From: Alphaproteobacteria bacterium UBA1185
GTDB taxonomy: Bacteria; Pseudomonadota; Alphaproteobacteria; Rs-D84
Assembly (NCBI GenBank): GCA_002310415.1
Contig: DBYN01000006.1
Span: forward strand, 154,565 to 218,564
Length of the DNA: 64,000 nucleotides
Direction: 5' to 3'
A program made the position numbers and the translations under genes. The number at the start of each line of letters is the position of its first letter. The first letter of the stretch is position 1. Below are positions 8,066 to 43,559 of this stretch, one piece after another. The notes below the pieces were generated by a model. It had not been told where the DNA came from. It made no database searches and was given only the letters and a program-made list of their open reading frames with translations.

Positions 8066-8515
8066 TTATTGATTTGCAGGTTTTTGATTTGCGGCCGCAT
8101 TTTGTCTTTGTTCATACAATGCTGCAAAATCAACAGGTTGCATTGTAAATGCTGGAAAACCCGATTCCGCTGTCAATCTTGTTACCAATGCACGAACGGC
8201 TGGGAACAATAATGTCGGTACATCTATTAATAACGTCTTCTTTTTTGTTTCTTCGTCTTTTTCTTCATATTGGACAATCCCGGTATACGTAGATTCAATC
8301 AAAAACATTGTTTTATCATCTTTTTCCAATTTAGAATGGACTTTGGTAATCAAATCAACCATAAACAGATTATTTTCAGAACCTTTGATATTTATGTCAA
8401 TGTTGATTTCTAATTTTGCCTGACCGTTGTCTTGTTTAAAGAATAATTCTGGTACATTTGGGCTTTCGAATGAGATATCTTTCAAGAATTGTGAAATAAT
8501 ATTAAACTTTGGCAT
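8066..8515 (-). CDS. secB: Protein-export chaperone SecB
   Basis: 149 aa. 'KDISFESPNVP' matches E. coli SecB 'KDISFEAPNAP', and 'LLFPAVRALVTRL...PVDFAALY' resembles 'ILFPYARE...PVNFDALF'. Confidence 0.85.
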   Translation of the reverse strand: MPKFNIISQFLKDISFESPNVPELFFKQDNGQAKLEINIDINIKGSENNLFMVDLITKVHSKLEKDDKTMFLIESTYTGIVQYEEKDEETKKKTLLIDVPTLLFPAVRALVTRLTAESGFPAFTMQPVDFAALYEQRQNAAANQKPANQ

Positions 8516-8594
8516 GTATTGCTCCTTTTTTTATCCTCGGTTTTATGATAATATAGCATTAAGGAATTGTTTTTACAAGGGGGGATAATTAAAA

Positions 8595-9689
8595 ATGTCA
8601 TTATTTTCAAAATTTATGCGTTTGTTGGGTTTGTATATGTTCGTTGGGCTTATTGCAGCCTGCGATTTGTCATCACCAACCCATGTTGGTGACGATTCGC
8701 AAGTGCCTTCGAATTTGCGGGCTGTATCTTATTCGGCTTTGCCTGGGTGGCGCGCTGATGATGTGCGATATGCTTTACAGGCATTTCGTAATACCTGCAA
8801 AGCAAAGATTCAATACAAGGGGCAAGTTGTGCCAGATGCAGAATTGTTGCGTGAAAAATGTAATATGTTGCCAAGTTCTTCTGCGGATATAGCAACTGTG
8901 CGCGCTTGGTTTGAATCTAATTTCCAGCCTTATCAAGTTTATAATGAAAAGGGTGGTAAAACCGGTACATATACAGGTTATTATTCGCCAGTTATAAATG
9001 GGTGTCGTCAAAAGACTGCTGTTTGTAATGAACCAATAATGGGGGTGCCAATTGACGGTTCATCTTACAAGGGTGTATCAAAGCGTGATATTGTAAACAA
9101 AAGAATAGGGCGTATTTTATATTGGGCAAATATTGTTGATGTTCAAAATCTTCAAATCCAAGGCAGTGGTATGTTAAAATTGGACGATGGTAAAATGGTG
9201 AAATTAAACTTTGCTGCGGTTAATGATATGCCTTTTAAATCTATTGGAAAACAATTGCAAGACAAAGGTATAAAACCATCTGGTGGATATTCGGCTGATG
9301 CTGTGTGGACACATTTAAAACAAAATCCACAGTTAGCAAAAGAGGTAATTTATAACAATCCAAGATATGTTTATTTCTACGAATCTGGTCAGCATAGTGT
9401 AGTTGGAAAATTGGGAACTCCATTGTCAAAAATACGTAGTGTTGCGATGGATGATTCTCTGTATACGTTGGGTTTGCCTGTATATATTAATACTTCGCTT
9501 TCTGATGGGCGGTCTTTTAATCGGTTGATGATTGCGCAGGATACTGGTGGCGCAATCAAAGGTTGGATTCGTGCAGACATATTCTTTGGAAGTGGGGACG
9601 AAGCATACAAAGTTGCGCATGGTCAACATGCCCAAGGTCAAATGTTTATCTTAATGCCAAAAGAATACAGTTATGTCAAACCAAGATAA
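8595..9689 (+). CDS. mltA: Membrane-bound lytic murein transglycosylase A-like lipoprotein (MltA family)
   Basis: Lipobox 'LIAAC'. Size 364 aa. 'SALPGWRADDVRYALQAFRNTC' resembles the MltA N-terminal region, with a 3D-domain-like C-terminal part. The family call is from memory. Confidence 0.55.
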   Translation: MSLFSKFMRLLGLYMFVGLIAACDLSSPTHVGDDSQVPSNLRAVSYSALPGWRADDVRYALQAFRNTCKAKIQYKGQVVPDAELLREKCNMLPSSSADIATVRAWFESNFQPYQVYNEKGGKTGTYTGYYSPVINGCRQKTAVCNEPIMGVPIDGSSYKGVSKRDIVNKRIGRILYWANIVDVQNLQIQGSGMLKLDDGKMVKLNFAAVNDMPFKSIGKQLQDKGIKPSGGYSADAVWTHLKQNPQLAKEVIYNNPRYVYFYESGQHSVVGKLGTPLSKIRSVAMDDSLYTLGLPVYINTSLSDGRSFNRLMIAQDTGGAIKGWIRADIFFGSGDEAYKVAHGQHAQGQMFILMPKEYSYVKPR

Positions 9690-10008
9690 AAAAGCAAATC
9701 TTGTAATTCGTAAATCCAGACCACAAACGTTGGGTGCATCTTTTGGTGGGCTGTTAGATACTTTTGGTATTCGAGCATCTGATGCAGATTTGGCGAATAA
9801 TTGGAAAAATATTGTTGGTGCAGAAATTGCGAATATTTCAAAAGTTGTTGCAGTTAAACAAAAACGCGATAAGAAAATAGATGTTGTTTTGCGTCCTATG
9901 TCACCTGCGTTTGTGCTGGAATTATCATACAAAGTTGATGAGTGTATTAAAAAACTAAATAAATATTATGGTCGAGATATTGTTTCGAAAATAACAATCA
10001 GGAAGTAA
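9673..10008 (+). CDS. DUF721/DciA-like protein (putative replicative helicase loader family)
   Basis: 111 aa. Pattern 'W..IVG.EIA..S.VV......IDVVL...SPAFV.ELSY....I..LN...G..IV.KI' matches the DciA/DUF721 signature. Overlaps the mltA 3' end by 17 nt. Confidence 0.5.
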   Translation: MSNQDKKANLVIRKSRPQTLGASFGGLLDTFGIRASDADLANNWKNIVGAEIANISKVVAVKQKRDKKIDVVLRPMSPAFVLELSYKVDECIKKLNKYYGRDIVSKITIRK

Positions 10009-35274: not shown

Positions 35275-36570
35275 ATGAAAAAAAGTATGTTAGTTTTGAT
35301 TTTACTTGGATTAATGCCTGTTTTGGGTGCTGGTGCGTATGAATATCGTAAAGAGAGCAGTCAATACACCACCACTCGTTCGTCAGATGGGTATAAAAAA
35401 TCTAGGACGGTTCGTAAAACTGGCAGTTATCACAATACTATAAATAATAATTTTTATTATGCTCAGCCATCACAACCATCGAATCGTTCACAGATGTATC
35501 GTGATTATGACAGCGAATATGTTTCGCGTGAAACGATTGTTGAAAAAGATGATTCTGTTTTGCAAATAAGACCGGAACGTTCATCCCAGGAACGTAAATA
35601 TTTCTTGGCACATCCATTTTTTCAACCGTTGCAATCAAGATTTGGTTCTGTAACAGATGTGTCATATGCTAATGGAAATATGGATTTCAGTTTGTTGGAT
35701 GGTACGTTTTATGATTTGGATAAACCTGTGCCGGCTGGGTATAATGATGCCGTTTATGCAGATATAAATCTTAAAGGCGAATCATCAGTAAAACAGTTCT
35801 TGGTCAAAGAAGATTTCAGTTTGGGTTTATCTGATACTTTGGCATTGATTTTGATGGCTCAATATGATTCTACCAAGGTTAAATTTGATAATTGGTCCAG
35901 TGGTGAAAAGGGTAGTTCGTCTTCTAATTCTGGCGTAAATGTGTTTGGTATTGGTTTACAAAATCGCTTTATTGATAATGGCGAATGGATTGCGATGTTT
36001 TCTGGATTTTTCCAACATCAAAAAGATACAGCTAATTCATTTATCTTTGATATCAAGGGTGGATACAAGATTGACAGAACAACTGTATACGGATTGGCAC
36101 GTTTGGGATATTCAAATTTGACAGATGGTGATGTATATGGTGTCAAAGTTGATGAAGACACTGGTGATTATATGGTTTTAACCTATAAAACAGATGTTAA
36201 AGATATCGTAAATGTAGAAGTTGGTGGTGGTGTATTCTCTGTTTTGGATAAAACCATTTATCTTGGGGGTGAAATGCTTTACGGACACTATGATTGGCAC
36301 AATCAATTGAATATCAAAGGTACAATTGGTTTCCAACCACGTGAATCTTTTGCATTAAGTTTATACGCATCTACTTCATTGTATGATTCAGCCAAGGGAA
36401 AAATAAATCAATTTATCAATTACGATGTAGATCCTGCACCAGTTGTTGACCCAGAAACAGAAAACGTACTGACAAATCCAGATAGCAGATTGGGGTACAC
36501 TGTTGGCAATTACGAAGTCAACAAATATAATGAATGGAAAATAGGTGTTCAACTTATTGCATATTTCTAA
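35275..36570 (+). CDS. Putative outer-membrane beta-barrel protein (signal peptide, C-terminal aromatic residue)
   Basis: Signal 'MKKSMLVLILLGLMPVLGAGA'. Alternating hydrophobic beta strands. Ends in '...IGVQLIAYF'. Confidence 0.45.
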   Translation: MKKSMLVLILLGLMPVLGAGAYEYRKESSQYTTTRSSDGYKKSRTVRKTGSYHNTINNNFYYAQPSQPSNRSQMYRDYDSEYVSRETIVEKDDSVLQIRPERSSQERKYFLAHPFFQPLQSRFGSVTDVSYANGNMDFSLLDGTFYDLDKPVPAGYNDAVYADINLKGESSVKQFLVKEDFSLGLSDTLALILMAQYDSTKVKFDNWSSGEKGSSSSNSGVNVFGIGLQNRFIDNGEWIAMFSGFFQHQKDTANSFIFDIKGGYKIDRTTVYGLARLGYSNLTDGDVYGVKVDEDTGDYMVLTYKTDVKDIVNVEVGGGVFSVLDKTIYLGGEMLYGHYDWHNQLNIKGTIGFQPRESFALSLYASTSLYDSAKGKINQFINYDVDPAPVVDPETENVLTNPDSRLGYTVGNYEVNKYNEWKIGVQLIAYF

Positions 36571-36605
36571 TCAGTTGTCTTGTGTATAACTGTGGTGTTG
36601 GTGTG

Positions 36606-37478
36606 ATGAAAAAGTATTTGTTGGCATTAATTGGTTTGTTCGTTGTAAATGTTGCGCTGGCGCAAGGTGTAGTGTTGTCTGATACTTATGTATCAGATGA
36701 TGCTTTGACGGAAGAACCTGTTGTCGAAGAACCTTTTGTTGCGCCGCAATCGTCGAAGTCTGTTGTATCACAAAAATCTGGTGGGTATGTTGAACAACAG
36801 GTGAAACCTGTATTTCGTGGTGTTGTATCAAATGATTTATCTGACCCCTTGTTTATGTTACCAGATGATAGATTTTTATCTGATACGTTTGTTAATTTCA
36901 TAGACAGTAAATTACGTCTGGGGCAGTATATTGGATATGGTATAAATAACAATTTTGTTATTCATGCCAGTATGCTTTATCAGATAGATTTTACACGAAA
37001 TCATGAAAATGGTTTTTCCAGTACTGAATTTGGTGGAATATATCGTATGAACCATGGAACGGGCCAATCGCATATAATTTCAGATGTTTTGTTTGGGTTG
37101 AAGTTATGGGGTTCATCGCATGTTAGAACACCAGAATATGCAGATTCGTCTTATTATGCAGGATTGCGTTTTGGACGTCAATTTGCAGGTTTAACATTGG
37201 CGGGAACCGTAAAATCTACGTGGGTATTCCAAGATGAACGTGGATTATCTTATATTGATTTTATTCCAGAGGCGTATTTTAGATTTCAATATGATTGGCG
37301 TGCAGGTTTGGGATTTGATTTCAGGAAATCTACGAACAGATTTTTATTGCCAAATCAAGGGTGGTTAAATTTGAAACTGTTACGTCAGTATGGCAATACT
37401 CAATGGGTTGGACGGTTTGATTATGAATTTGAATCCGAAGAAGTTCAAGTTGGTATGAATATCAAGATATTGTTTTAA
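36606..37478 (+). CDS. Putative outer-membrane beta-barrel protein (second of tandem pair)
   Basis: Signal 'MKKYLLALIGLFVVNVALAQG'. Ends in '...VGMNIKILF'. Start set at the internal MKKYLL. Confidence 0.45.
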   Translation: MKKYLLALIGLFVVNVALAQGVVLSDTYVSDDALTEEPVVEEPFVAPQSSKSVVSQKSGGYVEQQVKPVFRGVVSNDLSDPLFMLPDDRFLSDTFVNFIDSKLRLGQYIGYGINNNFVIHASMLYQIDFTRNHENGFSSTEFGGIYRMNHGTGQSHIISDVLFGLKLWGSSHVRTPEYADSSYYAGLRFGRQFAGLTLAGTVKSTWVFQDERGLSYIDFIPEAYFRFQYDWRAGLGFDFRKSTNRFLLPNQGWLNLKLLRQYGNTQWVGRFDYEFESEEVQVGMNIKILF

Positions 37479-38741: not shown

Positions 38742-38838
38742 TTTTCTTTCTTTATTATCCTTTTATGATATAATAATCATATTAAATAATTAAAGATTTA
38801 TCAAGACGGAAAACAAAATTGAACAAGGTAGGTTTATT

Positions 38839-40866
38839 ATGCGTGTTTATGTAAATTACGAAAATAAAACATGGAAAAAATACGATATTGATTTTGAAAA
38901 AATTGCGTCAGCGGCGGTTTTGGATGCTGATAAAGATGCAGAAGTTTCTGTTACTTTGGTAAATGATAAAAAAATTCAACGGTTAAACAAACAATATCGT
39001 GGTGTGGATAAACCAACGAATGTATTGTCTTTCGAATTGGGGGATGATTTATTATTGGGTGATATATTTATATCTTTGGATACTGTTGTCAAAGAAGCCC
39101 ATGCTGCATGTATTTCTGTGGAAGAACACACTGCACATATGATTGTTCATGGTATGTTACATTTACAGGGGTACGATCATTTGAATGATAAAGATGCTAT
39201 AATTATGGAACAGAAAGAAATTAAAATATTAAAACAATTAGGTTATAAAAACCCGTATGAAGAATCGAATAATGATTATCCACAATGTACAGAAGAATCT
39301 TGTTGTCCTGGTAGATGGATAACTAAATTAAAATCAATTAAAATCAGGCAAAATAGTTTTTGGCAATATTTTTTGGCATCCGTATTTGGAATTATTTGTT
39401 CTTTTGGTTTTGCTCCGTTTAATTTATGGATGTTGTCTTTATTTGCTATTGGTGGTATGTATTATTTAATAACCAGAAAGACCGGAAATATTAGTTTTAT
39501 GAAATCTTGGTTTGTGGCATTTCCGTTTGGGGCTTTTTATGGTATGTCTATGTTTTGGTGGGTTTTTCATTCGGTTTATGTTGTACCAGAATTAACAGAT
39601 AAATTTGCAATATGGGTTATTCCTGGATTGTTGGGCATAGGTTTGATTTGTGGTTTTATATTATCGTTACCTTTTGCTGTGATTCGTTATATTTCAAGCA
39701 AACCAGCGAATAGGGCGATTTTATTTGCTGTATCCTGGACGTTAGTGTTATGGTTGCGCGAATGGTTTTTAACTGGTTTTCCATGGAATCCAATATCTAA
39801 TATAACTATGTCTATGCCAATGGTTATAAATTCTATCGCTTTGTGGGGATCGTTGGGTTTGTCTTTTGTTATAGTTGGGTTGATTGCAAGTTTTATAGAA
39901 TTATTACGTTACAGAAAGTCAAAGTCTTGCATTGTTGTGTTTGTAGTGTATGCAGTATTGTTTTTAATCGGGTGTATTTATGGTTTGCATAATATGCATA
40001 AATCACAACCAAATAATATGGAAAATATCCCGATGATAAGGATTATACAGCCCGCTAAGTCTGCTGAATACAAAAGATTAAGGGTTGAACATAGTATTAG
40101 AGAAGTTGTACAGAAAAGATACCAAGATTTGATTGATTGGGCAAAAGAAGATAGAACCGTAGAACCAGATATAATAGTTTATCCAGAAACTGTCTATCCG
40201 TATTGGGTTGCGGAACCTGAATTTCCTTTGTCACGAATATTAAATACAAATGTTATTATGGGCGTTCTTACTTATAATGCCGGTAAAAAGTACAATTCTA
40301 TGGTCATAGCAGATAAAACAGGTGAAATTCAACATTTGTATAACAAAGCACATTTGGTACCGTTTGGGGAATACAGACCTTTTGGGGATATAATTCCAAC
40401 ACCTGGACAATTAAGTCCTGGAAGCCAAGCAAAAAAAATAATGTCTATAAATACCAAATATGGTGATTTTAAGGTTGCTCCGGCTATTTGTTATGAAATA
40501 ATTTTTTCTGATTCTTTGGTGCCACGTGGCGGAACACCTGATGCTGTTGTAAATATAACTAATGACACATGGTTTGGGCAAACACCAGGCGTATATCAGC
40601 ATTTAGATATGGTCAGACGTTACGCAATTGAATCAGGTTTGCCGGTTATTCGTGCAAATTATTCTGGGATAAGTGCTTTTGTTATGCCAGACGGCAATGT
40701 TGAATCAATGTTGTATGTTGGTCAAACGGGGCATTTAGACGGTTTTGTATGGGGAGCTCATAATACTGTATATAGAATACTGGGGCGTGATATGTGGGTG
40801 ATAATTATTTTGTTGTTTTCAATAATTGTTTTAAAATCCATATCCGTATTTCAGAAGAAAGATTAG
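38839..40866 (+). CDS. Fusion ORF: YbeY endoribonuclease domain (aa 1-150) + apolipoprotein N-acyltransferase Lnt (aa ~180-675)
   Basis: YbeY Zn motif 'HGMLHLQGYDH'. Then the Lnt TM region ('FGFAPFNLWMLSLFA'), CN-hydrolase E/K/C ('PETVYPYW', 'YNKAHLVPFGEY', 'APAICYEIIF'). One continuous frame with no in-frame Met at the domain junction. Confidence 0.7.
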   Translation: MRVYVNYENKTWKKYDIDFEKIASAAVLDADKDAEVSVTLVNDKKIQRLNKQYRGVDKPTNVLSFELGDDLLLGDIFISLDTVVKEAHAACISVEEHTAHMIVHGMLHLQGYDHLNDKDAIIMEQKEIKILKQLGYKNPYEESNNDYPQCTEESCCPGRWITKLKSIKIRQNSFWQYFLASVFGIICSFGFAPFNLWMLSLFAIGGMYYLITRKTGNISFMKSWFVAFPFGAFYGMSMFWWVFHSVYVVPELTDKFAIWVIPGLLGIGLICGFILSLPFAVIRYISSKPANRAILFAVSWTLVLWLREWFLTGFPWNPISNITMSMPMVINSIALWGSLGLSFVIVGLIASFIELLRYRKSKSCIVVFVVYAVLFLIGCIYGLHNMHKSQPNNMENIPMIRIIQPAKSAEYKRLRVEHSIREVVQKRYQDLIDWAKEDRTVEPDIIVYPETVYPYWVAEPEFPLSRILNTNVIMGVLTYNAGKKYNSMVIADKTGEIQHLYNKAHLVPFGEYRPFGDIIPTPGQLSPGSQAKKIMSINTKYGDFKVAPAICYEIIFSDSLVPRGGTPDAVVNITNDTWFGQTPGVYQHLDMVRRYAIESGLPVIRANYSGISAFVMPDGNVESMLYVGQTGHLDGFVWGAHNTVYRILGRDMWVIIILLFSIIVLKSISVFQKKD

Positions 40867-41017
40867 ATTTGGGCTCACGTTTATCATCGATATTTTTAAT
40901 TAGTTGTGCAACAGGTATGTTATGCTTTTTGGCGATTGCTTTTAATACATCAAAAAATTCTTGTTCCAAAGAGATGCTTGTTTGATGTCCGGATAAAGAT
41001 ATTGATATTTTTTGCAT
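40805..41017 (-). CDS. Ribbon-helix-helix (CopG/Arc-like) small protein
   Basis: 'ISISLSGHQTSISLEQEFFDVLKAIAKKHNIPVAQLIKNID' matches the conserved alphaproteobacterial RHH family 'SVTLSGHRTSISLEPAFW..L..IA'. Overlaps the lnt 3' end convergently by 62 nt. Confidence 0.55.
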   Translation of the reverse strand: MQKISISLSGHQTSISLEQEFFDVLKAIAKKHNIPVAQLIKNIDDKREPKSNLSSEIRIWILKQLLKTTK

Positions 41018-41018
41018 T

Positions 41019-41453
41019 TTATATTTTCCCAACAATTAAACAATCCAACATAGCGCGATACGGATCGTCATATTTTCGCAATACAGATAAATTCAAATTA
41101 TCCAACATAAAGCAAGTACCAAATGCATCTGCAGCAAACCAAAATAAATCGTTTCTGCCAAATACAGTTTTTCCAATTAAATTTTTGTTTCCAATTATAT
41201 CCTTGTTTATTGCAATTATTGATGGCAAAGGATATTTTATACCGCGTTGAATTTCGGTTGAACCAAATATACATGCAGAGCCCAATGTTACAGCGGAACA
41301 ATTATGATATAAATCTATTAAAAATGTCGGTAACATAGCAGCGCGTATGTCTTTTAAAATTGTGTTAGCAATATTTATTTTGTTTGCATCACTGGCGGGA
41401 AAAATTTGTGCGCCTTTGGATTGTAACAAAGATATAAATTCTTGGGTTGTCAT
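41019..41453 (-). CDS. Hypothetical protein, SUKH/SMI1-KNR4-like (putative immunity-protein fold)
   Basis: 144 aa. 'LPTFLIDLYHNCSAVTLGSACIFG' and 'LFWFAADAFGTCFMLD' resemble the SUKH-1 'LP.dY..FL..yNGG...G' and 'iPfA.DggGNyyc.D' blocks. The start directly abuts the upstream stop (TAAATG). Confidence 0.35.
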   Translation of the reverse strand: MTTQEFISLLQSKGAQIFPASDANKINIANTILKDIRAAMLPTFLIDLYHNCSAVTLGSACIFGSTEIQRGIKYPLPSIIAINKDIIGNKNLIGKTVFGRNDLFWFAADAFGTCFMLDNLNLSVLRKYDDPYRAMLDCLIVGKI

Positions 41454-41957
41454 TTATTCATTTCCTCGTCCAGATGCAAAAAACGCAGACTGAGATAATC
41501 TGTCCGAAGTTGAATTTCCCCCAGCACCGCCATTTGCAAGATTTGTTGAAATATAAATTTTTTTCGCGGGGTTTGGTAAAAATACCGTTTTTGCATTACT
41601 TTGCTCAATGATAAATCTGTCCAGATTATGACTTTGTGGAAAGGTTAAACACATAAACATATTATCAATATCAATCTTTCCACCCCATATCAACGGAATT
41701 CTGAATCGCAAAGATGTATTTTCTGGTAATTGTTTACCCATTATTAAATTCATAAATTCTTCTTTTGGTAAATTCAAAAAAGCGATTTCTTCAAAAGAAT
41801 CTGTCAGGGAAGCCATAAATTCTCGTCGCAAGGCAGAATATAATTTAAACCAATCTGCGTTTATTATGCAACGATTTGGCGTGTATTCCATCACTGGCAT
41901 ATCGTCCATTCCGAGTGCTGTTAACCGTTCAAGCGCAGAATGTTTTGTTAATTGCAT
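41454..41957 (-). CDS. Hypothetical protein (no recognisable family)
   Basis: 167 aa, soluble, Gly-rich tail 'NLANGGAGGNSTS'. Translationally coupled to the downstream SUKH-like gene. Confidence 0.4.
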   Translation of the reverse strand: MQLTKHSALERLTALGMDDMPVMEYTPNRCIINADWFKLYSALRREFMASLTDSFEEIAFLNLPKEEFMNLIMGKQLPENTSLRFRIPLIWGGKIDIDNMFMCLTFPQSHNLDRFIIEQSNAKTVFLPNPAKKIYISTNLANGGAGGNSTSDRLSQSAFFASGRGNE

Positions 41958-41969
41958 TCGTGTTAATCC

Positions 41970-42845
41970 TTAAATATTTTTAGCATATGTAATGATTGTA
42001 TCAATATAATCAGAATATGCATCAAAATTTTCTTGTTCTGATTCGTCTGTTGGTGGATTTGGGTTGTTGGTTATAAATTCTTTTAATTCATCTAGGTTAT
42101 GGAATATCAAAACATTGTCATCGGAAATATATATTTGTTTTGTATCTAAAACAAAAGCAGAAATTGTTATAGGAATGTCTTCTAAAGTTTCTTTGAAAAT
42201 GTCGCTTAACTTATCAATAGATTTCTTAAATCTTTCAATATCACAATCCACAGCACCAACCCAAACTGTCTCGTTATTTCCAATTGCAAATAAATTTGTA
42301 GTAAATCCAGAAATTGTTAATTTTGGTTTAACTTTATAACCTGCGTTTGCAAATATAGTAGATAACTCGGAATCATACAAAGTTGTTGGTTGTGTATTTG
42401 TTGGTTTGTTTTGTGCCAAAGATTGTTCTGATTGGTGTTGTGCAGCAATATTTGCGATGTTTTTGGGTAAATTTAATTTTGGCGGTTGATTTAGGTGTAC
42501 AAAGTTATTTGGACCAGGATATGTAGTATCTGTTTGTTTCTGTTTTCCAAGTTGTGTGGTATTCAAGATAGATGTATTTTCAGTTTTTGTAACAATGGTT
42601 TTGCCAAAACGTGGTTTAAAAATCATATATAGTCCAAATATAGTAATAAATACTGCAACACCAATAGAAACATAAAATGTTTTGTCAATTGGTGTATGTG
42701 AAACCTGTAACTTTGCCAATTCATCCCAATGTTCGGCATAAAAAATATTAAAACTGAATCGCACATTTAACCAAAACGAAAGTCCAAGCAAAACAGATGT
42801 GCAAAGCAATATAGATGATAAAATTTTTTCTATGTATTTGTTCAT
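41970..42845 (-). CDS. Hypothetical membrane protein (2 N-terminal TM helices, Q/T/N/P-rich linker, C-terminal alpha/beta domain, acidic tail)
   Basis: TM1 'ILSSILLCTSVLLGLSFWL', TM2 'FYVSIGVAVFITIFGLYMIF'. No known motif. Confidence 0.4.
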   Translation of the reverse strand: MNKYIEKILSSILLCTSVLLGLSFWLNVRFSFNIFYAEHWDELAKLQVSHTPIDKTFYVSIGVAVFITIFGLYMIFKPRFGKTIVTKTENTSILNTTQLGKQKQTDTTYPGPNNFVHLNQPPKLNLPKNIANIAAQHQSEQSLAQNKPTNTQPTTLYDSELSTIFANAGYKVKPKLTISGFTTNLFAIGNNETVWVGAVDCDIERFKKSIDKLSDIFKETLEDIPITISAFVLDTKQIYISDDNVLIFHNLDELKEFITNNPNPPTDESEQENFDAYSDYIDTIITYAKNI

Positions 42846-42887
42846 TTTATTTTTATTGTATCACATTTTATGATAAACTGACAACAA

Positions 42888-43559
42888 ATGATTGAAGCAA
42901 ATGAAATTTTTTCAGATTTTGATAAACGAATCGCTTTTTGGTGCGATAATGTCGCAGATACTGCTGAGTTGGCTGATTTATCAAATAATTTAATAGAAAA
43001 TAAAATTGATTTAATATCAGTTGTGCCAAATGCGGTTTATTTTTTGTGGACATGTTTGGAAAAACAAAATGTTAAAATTTTACCAAGATATTATTTCGCA
43101 CCACTGCAAAAAAATATGGATACATATGTGTCAGAATTGGTTAAAAATATCACTAATGTTTTCAAAAAGGGTGCAACAGGTGTTCAAATTTTTTTGAAAA
43201 TGCGGGATTTAGAACGTTTTACAGACACTATAAAGTTTGTTCGTAATGATTTGTTTTTTGAACATGTGTTATGTGTGGGCTTTGATATAAATGATATTAA
43301 TTTTGAAGATTGGGATTTAGTTTTTCAAAAATTGCATGATTTATGTGCGGATGCGCTTGTGTTAACATTAAATGAAGATATGGGAAATCGGTCTGATTTT
43401 GTGGGACGTGTTTACGGTATGTTGCAAAAATGGGATTTTGGCGGAGAATTACACTTTAAATTAAATAACGACTACGAACGTATGGACCAAGTAATCCGCT
43501 TGATTGAATCAGAAAAAAATGAATTATCTGATAAATTACGCTTTTTCTTGGATTATTAA
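42888..43559 (+). CDS. Hypothetical protein (possible TIM-barrel, DeoC-like by weak resemblance only)
   Basis: 223 aa. 'IDLISVVPNAVYFL' weakly recalls a DeoC beta-strand. No catalytic Lys motif identified. Confidence 0.3.
   Translation: MIEANEIFSDFDKRIAFWCDNVADTAELADLSNNLIENKIDLISVVPNAVYFLWTCLEKQNVKILPRYYFAPLQKNMDTYVSELVKNITNVFKKGATGVQIFLKMRDLERFTDTIKFVRNDLFFEHVLCVGFDINDINFEDWDLVFQKLHDLCADALVLTLNEDMGNRSDFVGRVYGMLQKWDFGGELHFKLNNDYERMDQVIRLIESEKNELSDKLRFFLDY

Follow-up and report, generated by a model that had tools for sequence, protein, structure and literature searches.

What kind of gene set lies between trmB and ybeY-lnt in the uncultured Alphaproteobacteria bacterium UBA1185, and is it a toxin/immunity or defence module, as its architecture seemed to suggest? 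We investigated this question in a stretch of 64,000 nucleotides (the window: positions 154,565 to 218,564 of the forward strand of contig DBYN01000006.1, assembly GCA_002310415.1). In this window, a minus-strand operon at 40805-42845 encodes a 291-aa protein with two transmembrane (TM) helices, hereafter TM2, a 167-aa protein with a predicted HNH nuclease fold, a 144-aa protein probably of the SUKH/YrhA type and a ribbon-helix-helix (RHH) protein. On balance, we favour the reading that this operon is the clade's reduced version of an HNH/SUKH module linked to a type IV coupling protein (T4CP), that it is non-catalytic, and that its products likely serve as an adaptor, regulator or substrate complex. 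This reading builds on homologies, fold, histidine loss, synteny, fixation throughout the clade and housekeeping-like conservation.

The operon and its fixation in relatives

Open reading frame (ORF) translations of the window confirmed all five genes of the block, which are listed here with their candidate promoter and the T4CP gene of the window (HMM, hidden Markov model):

41970..42845, minus strand: 291-aa TM2 protein (family HMM E 9e-86; alignment A8)
41454..41957, minus strand: 167-aa predicted HNH-fold (His-Me finger) protein with a degenerate active site
41019..41453, minus strand: 144-aa protein assigned by sequence to the SUKH superfamily (YrhA-type)
40805..41017, minus strand: 70-aa RHH_4 protein, the final operon gene (PF13467, E 9e-22)
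42855..42884, minus strand: candidate operon promoter, TTGTCA-18-TACAAT with TG, the best sigma-70-like match in the region
42888..43559, plus strand: 223-aa divergent orphan, whose family HMM matches the window, L001 and L002 only
54668..56938, minus strand: 756-aa VirD4/TraG-type T4CP (tblastn, Pfam, Walker motifs)

The order trmB–223–291–167–144–RHH, with ybeY-lnt convergent to it, is identical in the window and in every relative sampled. We fetched four loci from three distinct relatives, L001 and L002 sharing an identical 167-aa protein, and all four show the order der-hlyIII-gltX-trmB-223-TM2(290-321 aa)-168-144-RHH_4(70 aa)><ybeY-lnt-...-mgsA. The 167-aa proteins of these relatives are 68-72% identical to that of the window. 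Between the window and L002, the HNH-like (167 aa), SUKH-like (144 aa) and RHH proteins share 68%, 69% and 67% identity, respectively, while the values are 67% for ybeY-lnt, 74% for trmB, 80% for gltX, 49% for TM2 (291 aa) and 55% for the 223-aa protein. The 167-aa, 144-aa and RHH proteins diverge no faster than ybeY-lnt, and their conservation is housekeeping-like. Both the 167-aa and the 144-aa proteins have hundreds of homologs of near-constant length and 67-90% identity, found in metagenome-assembled genomes (MAGs) of 'Alphaproteobacteria bacterium' from gut, rumen and faeces, and one 144-aa homolog belongs to Candidatus Enterousia merdequi. The 120 listed homologs of the 167-aa protein are all 160-171 aa long and at least 67% identical. 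The operon belongs, as a fixed set of genes that evolve slowly, to an uncultured clade of gut Alphaproteobacteria. A first-pass annotation had described the block as accessory, naming beforehand a gene order shared by all relatives as the observation that would count against this; that order is found in every relative sampled, and ybeY-lnt shows about the same level of conservation as the 167-aa, 144-aa and RHH proteins, so that the description does not hold.

The same annotation correctly recognized four tightly packed co-directional genes, with which our coordinates and spacing agree, and the TAAATG that joins the 167-aa and 144-aa genes. Read directly, this junction is GAATAAATGACA, which confirms the coupling. 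Only 12 nt, including an AGGA, separate the stop codon of the 291-aa gene from the start of the 167-aa gene, and the stop of the 144-aa gene is followed by TAAAATG, the ATG of which (41017) would be the RHH start. This ATG (giving 70 aa) is most likely the real start rather than the TTG at 41035 (76 aa), because the RHH proteins of the relatives are all 70 aa long. The 291-aa and 223-aa genes diverge from a 42-bp gap, which holds the sigma-70-like site; the position of the best match upstream of the 291-aa gene fits a single operon, the site being a consensus match in a region whose total of such sites is not above the shuffled expectation. At the other end, the RHH_4 gene overlaps the convergent ybeY-lnt gene by 62 nt at their 3' ends (40805-40866). 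The same overlap exists in L002, L055 and L056, indicating that it is not an accident of ORF calling. The GC content is about 0.29-0.34, and GC and GC skew are continuous with the flanks.

Could the operon nevertheless be an active toxin/immunity or anti-phage module, with the 167-aa protein as the effector, the 144-aa protein as its immunity protein, the 291-aa protein serving in the membrane for sensing or delivery, and the RHH protein as a regulator? The translational coupling of the 167-aa and 144-aa genes and the presence of an RHH gene in the operon are in line with this, and the combination of an HNH/EndoVII-fold toxin with a SUKH (SMI1/KNR4) immunity protein is an archetypal pairing in polymorphic toxin systems (Zhang, Iyer & Aravind 2011, PMC3113570). 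However, every relative has the block, fixed at one and the same housekeeping locus, and it evolves like housekeeping genes, with no variability in length or cassettes. There is no integrase, tRNA or composition shift that would mark an island around the block, and no tRNA gene in the whole window. Searches of the five proteins against the defence profiles of PADLOC-DB 2.0 gave no match at E values up to 1, and no PHROG match was found. We regard this explanation as very unlikely, and the absence of PADLOC matches together with the fixation of the block also speaks against the defence module proposed in the first-pass annotation.

The HNH-fold protein and its SUKH-type partner

The 167-aa protein has no significant match in Pfam, NCBIfam, PADLOC, PHROGs or the PDB sequences, and no curated HNH profile of Pfam or NCBIfam matches the window protein, its clade or the longer relatives described next. 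A profile search of 1.84 billion representatives yielded 57 distant relatives. Many of these are long forms of 200-420 aa, with an N-terminal MWDWSG, a P/Q-rich low-complexity linker and a conserved C-terminal domain having a PENFN[VI]H[LI]K[VI]PxEYGGxxxFSNLxLIQTHPYHxxIHKFI motif. The window clade aligns with the long forms over 143 columns (hhalign 98.4%, E 9e-15). An AlphaFold2 model of the 167-aa protein, built from an alignment that includes the distant homologs, has a predicted local distance difference test score (pLDDT) of 79.3 (about 85-90 for residues 1-140), against 46 for a model from only 30 sequences sharing 67% identity or more. The model contains a β-β-α core at 81-85/100-104/105-118, followed by a disordered tail. 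A Foldseek search of the PDB gave no significant match. On the basis of this model, the 167-aa protein is predicted to have an HNH / His-Me finger fold.

The link to HNH in sequence is transitive, leading from the window clade to the long forms, from these to a protein encoded on IncHI2 plasmids, and from there to PF01844. A long form matches the IncHI2 protein with an E value of 4e-19 in pairwise BLASTP, and the IncHI2 protein itself passes the Pfam HNH profile (26.9 bits; cut-off 21.4). The plasmid segment VHHKIPLDDGG aligns with LRFRIPLIWGG of the window clade (hhalign E 3e-5).

The active-site positions of the 167-aa protein are occupied by R84, F85, N99, F106, S109 and D113, where relatives have H, N, H, H and H at R84, N99, F106, S109 and D113, respectively. 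In a residue census of 251 family members at five motif positions, about 80 T4CP-adjacent forms read H-N-x-H-H, about 130 members of the window clade read R-N-F-S/A/C-D, and about 20 other short forms read M-N-Y-R-A, I-N-H-S-F and similar. The structural Asn is the sole HNH motif residue kept in the window protein. The loss of all active-site histidines in about 130 clade members makes an active toxin unlikely. The toxin/immunity shape noticed in the first-pass annotation therefore survives as ancestry, through the HNH fold and the SUKH partner, though not as present activity; the 167-aa protein is effector-like in ancestry because of its nuclease fold. The canonical general-base His, which is the second H of the HH dyad in the plasmid protein, is found in no alphaproteobacterial member; the 'intact' forms have a His one residue upstream of this position.

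The disordered C-terminal tail of the 167-aa protein carries a GGNxxSDRL motif that is family-wide. This GG[NKT]xxxDR[LS] motif is retained in both His-bearing and His-less forms, which argues for a non-catalytic function, and one may speculate that it would fit a recognition signal. At the other terminus, the MWDWSG start is near-invariant on most T4CP-adjacent HNH-like proteins (at least 42 sequences; L003:7001-7963, L006-L043) and is followed by 100-250 residues of P/Q/Y/A-rich low-complexity sequence. Together they look like a terminal docking peptide on a disordered tether, judging from composition; the 167-aa protein of the window lacks this extension.

The 144-aa protein likewise shows no significant match in Pfam, NCBIfam, PADLOC, PHROGs or the PDB sequences. 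Its full-length alignment with the NCBIfam YrhA profile (NF038335) scores 16.2 bits (E 0.0074; cut-off 55). The genes downstream of the HNH-like gene in distant loci resemble it weakly and consistently (E 2e-5, 5e-4 and 0.03), with a coherent alignment (A7). One of these orthologs, in L005, passes NF038335 with 66.6 bits. In Pfam, 26 orthologs match only SUKH_5 (10), SMI1_KNR4 (7) and SUKH_6 (6), with a best E of 9e-5 and none shown at the gathering score. The best PDB profile match of the family is 2ICG (E 0.05), which is among the SUKH structures named in PMC3113570, and the YrhA protein of plasmid pMY490-mcr-9 aligns with the family at 95% in hhalign. The 144-aa gene immediately follows the HNH-fold gene, an adjacency that recurs in 42/42 scanned loci extending that far. 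These similarities suggest that the 144-aa protein is probably of the SUKH/YrhA type. The SUKH-like assignment in the first-pass annotation, whose motifs are legible in the translation, agrees with the ortholog Pfam matches, the L005 YrhA score and 2ICG.

Linkage to a VirD4-type coupling protein

What, then, does the HNH-like/SUKH-like pair accompany elsewhere? In L003 and L005, a gene for a VirD4/TraG-type T4CP stands immediately before the HNH-like gene and is itself preceded by one or two genes for 2-TM proteins. A scan of one genome per species, using a long-form HNH-like query alignment, found 43 loci, mostly in gut, rumen and faecal alphaproteobacterial MAGs, including 'Acetobacter sp. 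CAG:977' and Rhodospirillales bins. In a census with family HMMs, TM2(x1-2)-T4CP-HNH-like is present in all of these species-level loci (43/43), and the SUKH gene comes next in 42/43, the remaining locus ending inside the HNH-like gene. Because the trio flanks a T4CP gene in related bacteria, it does not appear to be a mobile toxin or defence island. The first-pass annotation overlooked this linkage, which is the actual setting of the pair.

The window has its own T4CP gene, whose product is orthologous to the T4CP separating TM2 and HNH-like elsewhere (48-50% identity, tblastn). It contains PF02534 (168.7 bits), PF12696 (69.8 bits) and PF10412 (67.8 bits) domains, intact Walker A (PPGTGKT) and Walker B (LFVLDE) motifs, and N-terminal TM helices. 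An ortholog misses all NCBIfam equivalog/subfamily cut-offs, suggesting a divergent T4CP subfamily. The window gene is surrounded by housekeeping genes (rsmE, rluA-type, thrS and lpoB-like). Downstream of it lie genes for a 415-aa protein (53405-54652, minus strand) and then an LpoB-like protein (52787-53392, minus strand). The 415-aa protein reads as a lipoprotein from its lipobox-like N-terminus (...LYSCAS), has no family match, and its HMM matched no other locus.

The 291-aa protein has two N-terminal TM helices, a linker, an α/β C-terminal domain and an acidic tail; the two hydrophobic helices, the Q/T/N/P-rich linker and the acidic tail listed in the first-pass annotation are all readable in the translation. 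It gave no significant match in Pfam, NCBIfam, PADLOC, PHROGs or the PDB sequences, but its family HMM (E 9e-86) places it in the 2-TM family encoded directly upstream of the VirD4-like gene elsewhere. An F-N-I-F-Y..HW motif between the TM helices and a C-terminal GY.V....I.G...FA block are common to both. Alignment A8 shows that the window protein lacks the conserved GDWLADEERFNDExPLWFSExxHRxSPV segment of the TM2 family, and that the GDWLADEERFNDE...HRxSPV block is absent from TM2 across the window clade. The C-terminal domains of TM2 orthologs approach NERD (PF08378; E 0.001 and 0.012; 20.0 and 16.6 bits; cut-off 22.1) and REase_MTES_1575 (E 0.035-0.06, below cut-offs), the latter being the only such match of the window protein (E 0.035). 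These matches recall membrane-anchored NERD/PD-(D/E)xK proteins, but all are sub-threshold, and the window protein lacks the most conserved segment of its family. No plasmid homolog of TM2 was found, and a PDB profile search was uninformative. In most lineages, among them L003 (L003:2307-4494) and the majority of L006-L048, TM2 is tandemly duplicated upstream of the T4CP gene and the two paralogs measure about 345-390 aa; L044-L048 have a short first copy (158-165 aa) that consists of the TM region only.

Every His-less form that we examined (the window clade, L004, L053 and L054) lacks a T4CP gene in its cluster. L004 ('Rickettsiales bacterium') keeps the same four-gene order and adjoins VirB6/TrbL-like genes, whereas the L053 and L054 forms neighbour exbB/exbD or asmA and uvrB. 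In three loci, VirB8-like genes are found no more than 10 kb from the module, and the closest plasmid T4CPs end virB4-B8-B9-B10-B11-virD4 clusters.

These observations can be arranged as follows. The core of the module is TM2, the HNH-fold protein and the SUKH/YrhA-type partner, sometimes with RHH_4, and most lineages have the order TM2(x1-2)-T4CP-HNH-SUKH, with an H..N..H..H signature in the HNH protein. In the window clade, the T4CP gene is 12 kb off, the N-terminal extension and all histidines of the HNH-like protein are lost, as is a conserved core segment of TM2, and RHH_4 is the last gene of the operon. The 167-aa pseudo-nuclease and the 144-aa SUKH protein might form a stable non-toxic complex, like HNH toxin/SUKH immunity pairs, and with TM2 and the T4CP as its partners at the inner membrane, this complex might serve as an adaptor, gate or regulator. 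Alternatively, the 167-aa protein might be a substrate that the T4CP recognizes through the disordered GGNxxSDRL tail. Through the candidate promoter between the divergent genes, RHH_4 may autoregulate the operon.

Several points weigh against this interpretation. The T4CP link is one of synteny, with the window T4CP gene 12 kb from the operon, and no virB genes were seen among the ten large ORFs scanned at 18.7-48.7 kb or the ten around the T4CP gene. The 144-aa protein of the window falls under every curated SUKH threshold. Since even the 'intact' relatives lack the general-base His, the ancestral activity is also uncertain, and D113 and other residues could in principle still bind metal.

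The distance from the T4CP gene raises another explanation, namely that the operon is a clade-specific envelope or housekeeping operon now unrelated to type IV secretion, its T4CP link being purely historical. The location between trmB and ybeY-lnt would fit, as would the surroundings of the L053 and L054 forms, which are not genes of a type IV secretion system (T4SS), and SUKH proteins such as Syd do have non-conflict roles, for example in SecY binding (PMC3113570). Yet no lineage separates the TM2-HNH-SUKH trio, whether or not a T4CP gene is present, the window retains an intact orthologous T4CP, and the His-less L004 form sits beside VirB6-like genes. We consider this explanation unlikely.

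Less likely still is that the His-bearing HNH proteins of the relatives are T4SS-delivered antibacterial nucleases and that the window clade has kept SUKH, along with a harmless toxin scaffold, for protection against those neighbours. The His-bearing forms do lie beside a T4CP gene in 43 species whose habitats (gut, rumen and faeces) are similar, and the conserved motif belongs to a disordered C-terminal tail, a feature shared with T4SS substrates. Xanthomonadales are known to have antibacterial T4SS effectors and the cognate immunity proteins (PMC11253643). However, a by-product of a former toxin would not be expected to keep 51 invariant positions and 67-90% identity. Cross-protection is doubtful because the window SUKH is 13-22% identical to the SUKH partners of the His-bearing forms. 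Moreover, those forms have no canonical general-base His, evolve slowly and are single copy.

Beyond the reduced, non-catalytic module that we favour for the window clade, we tentatively propose, as a possibility short of probable, that TM2, HNH-fold and SUKH proteins are dedicated, undescribed partners of VirD4-type T4CPs in host-associated Alphaproteobacteria. They might form a coupling or substrate-recruitment complex, or they might be an HNH effector with a SUKH chaperone or immunity protein. In the latter version, the HNH protein would be translocated by the T4SS through its GG[NKT]xxxDR tail. If either version is true, the window clade would represent a naturally 'disarmed' form, the retention of which speaks for a role other than catalysis.

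Comparison with known systems and neighbouring genes

Is such a pair known from elsewhere? A tblastn search with a long form gave matches on 458 plasmids (E about 1e-11 to 1e-12), mostly large plasmids of Enterobacteriaceae, of which 433 are typed conjugative; the single one checked for its replicon was typed IncHI2A. The matched protein is an 'HNH endonuclease' (about 350 aa), which on an IncHI2A-typed plasmid is encoded beside trhG/trhH, together with a 'YrhA family protein' (168 aa). The HNH–YrhA pairs of two plasmids were located from their annotation:

8359-9936: HNH–YrhA pair of pMY490-mcr-9 (NZ_CP053569.1; L050)
8383-9936: HNH–YrhA pair of a Kosakonia plasmid (L049)

Both proteins of the IncHI2-type pair are homologous to those of the window and are encoded in the same gene order, with a spacing of about 10 nt and in a setting of conjugation/T4SS genes. 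In contrast, the plasmid HNH protein has a canonical HH..N..H and lacks the GGNxxSDR tail, and no T4CP or TM2-type gene adjoins the pair on the two plasmids inspected. A literature search found no paper on YrhA function or on the IncHI2 HNH–YrhA pair, nor any characterisation of SUKH proteins in connection with a T4SS.

The window pair resembles the HNH/SUKH pairs of polymorphic toxin systems in having an HNH-fold gene followed by a translationally coupled SUKH gene, whose orthologs match SUKH_5, SMI1_KNR4, SUKH_6 and 2ICG. Unlike those toxins, it has no N-terminal trafficking domain (RHS, CdiA, WXG or LXG), no variable cassettes and no polymorphism; the 167-aa protein stands alone, in single copy and at the same locus in all relatives, with housekeeping-like conservation. 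The active-site histidines are lost in the window clade, and the pair of its relatives is linked to a T4CP, a linkage that we did not find for HNH/SUKH pairs in PMC3113570 or its 2012 sequel. Judged by sequence, the window pair is a variant of the HNH-toxin/SUKH-immunity theme of PMC3113570 and homologous to the plasmid HNH–YrhA pair. We also considered Tox-REHH (bioRxiv 10.64898/2026.09.22.753552), which was rejected as a different family from type V, VI, VII and IX secretion system contexts (T5, T6, T7, T9SS) with nothing connecting it to the operon.

Some T4CPs have dedicated adaptors, such as Legionella DotL with DotM, DotN and IcmSW, and TrwB of R388 with the RHH protein TrwA. The T4CP genes described here resemble theirs in having a small membrane-protein gene upstream and small soluble-protein genes downstream, sometimes including an RHH gene. 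By analogy, this arrangement would fit a role in a coupling complex or in substrate recruitment. PDB profile searches detected no sequence similarity to DotM, DotN, IcmS/W or TrwA, and both a DotL/DotM/DotN-like complex and a TrwA-TrwB-like DNA transfer and replication (Dtr) module were set aside as analogies without a sequence link. We know of no described coupling complex with nuclease-fold and SUKH parts.

HNH and SUKH pairs are textbook toxin/immunity cassettes. Here such a pair behaves as fixed core genes with an erased nuclease site, yet the trio stays together across distant lineages, a caution for genome mining that a toxin/immunity "shape" need not mean a conflict system. The invariant linkage to a T4CP and a 2-TM protein in Alphaproteobacteria, the occurrence of entire clades that are under purifying selection and whose active site is erased, and the MWDWSG/PQ-rich N-terminal extension of the long forms all appear to be new; a literature search of incomplete coverage found no paper describing any of the three. 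For T4SS research, the trio provides concrete candidates for partners or substrates of a coupling protein in a large, uncultured group of gut Alphaproteobacteria, tied to the HNH–YrhA pair for which tblastn gave matches on 458 plasmids.

The last operon gene was annotated at first as a 76-aa CopG-like RHH protein. RHH is right, whereas the family is RHH_4 (PF13467; 77.3 bits, cut-off 25; profile positions 2-66 of 67) and the length is likely 70 aa; its match to CopG_antitoxin (E 0.033) is below the cut-off. Among the loci compared, RHH_4 lies inside the fetched DNA in 6/48, and also in L054, L055 and L056; it is upstream of TM2 in L031, L033 and L005. Profile scans of the five proteins matched no neighbour of the RHH gene to a toxin family of toxin–antitoxin (TA) systems. 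A type II TA module with an RHH antitoxin was rejected, as there is no toxin-family partner and the linkage of RHH_4 is sporadic.

The 223-aa protein has no Pfam, NCBIfam, PDB, PADLOC or PHROG match and no relatives outside the window's clade. Its gene is separated by 42 bp from the divergent 291-aa gene and shares 4 nt with trmB where their 3' ends meet; it neighbours the conserved module without belonging to it.

On the other side of the operon, ybeY (endoribonuclease, residues 17-134) and lnt (LNT_N and CN_hydrolase) are fused in one 675-aa ORF (38839-40866, plus strand), and the same fusion (667-671 aa) is found in L001/L002, L055 and L056. A 627-aa tetratricopeptide repeat (TPR) protein is encoded between ybeY-lnt and mgsA in L001/L002 (L001 9111-10994), and a Ros/MucR gene in L056, while the window has neither (38742-38838 in the case of the TPR protein). 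These differences indicate real local variation in gene content on the other side of lnt, not in the block between trmB and ybeY-lnt. Two adjacent plus-strand ORFs of 431 aa (35275-36570) and 314 aa (36534-37478) have no Pfam match; the 314-aa product starts with a signal-peptide-like stretch, and its last residues are ...NIKILF, suggestive of an outer-membrane β-barrel.

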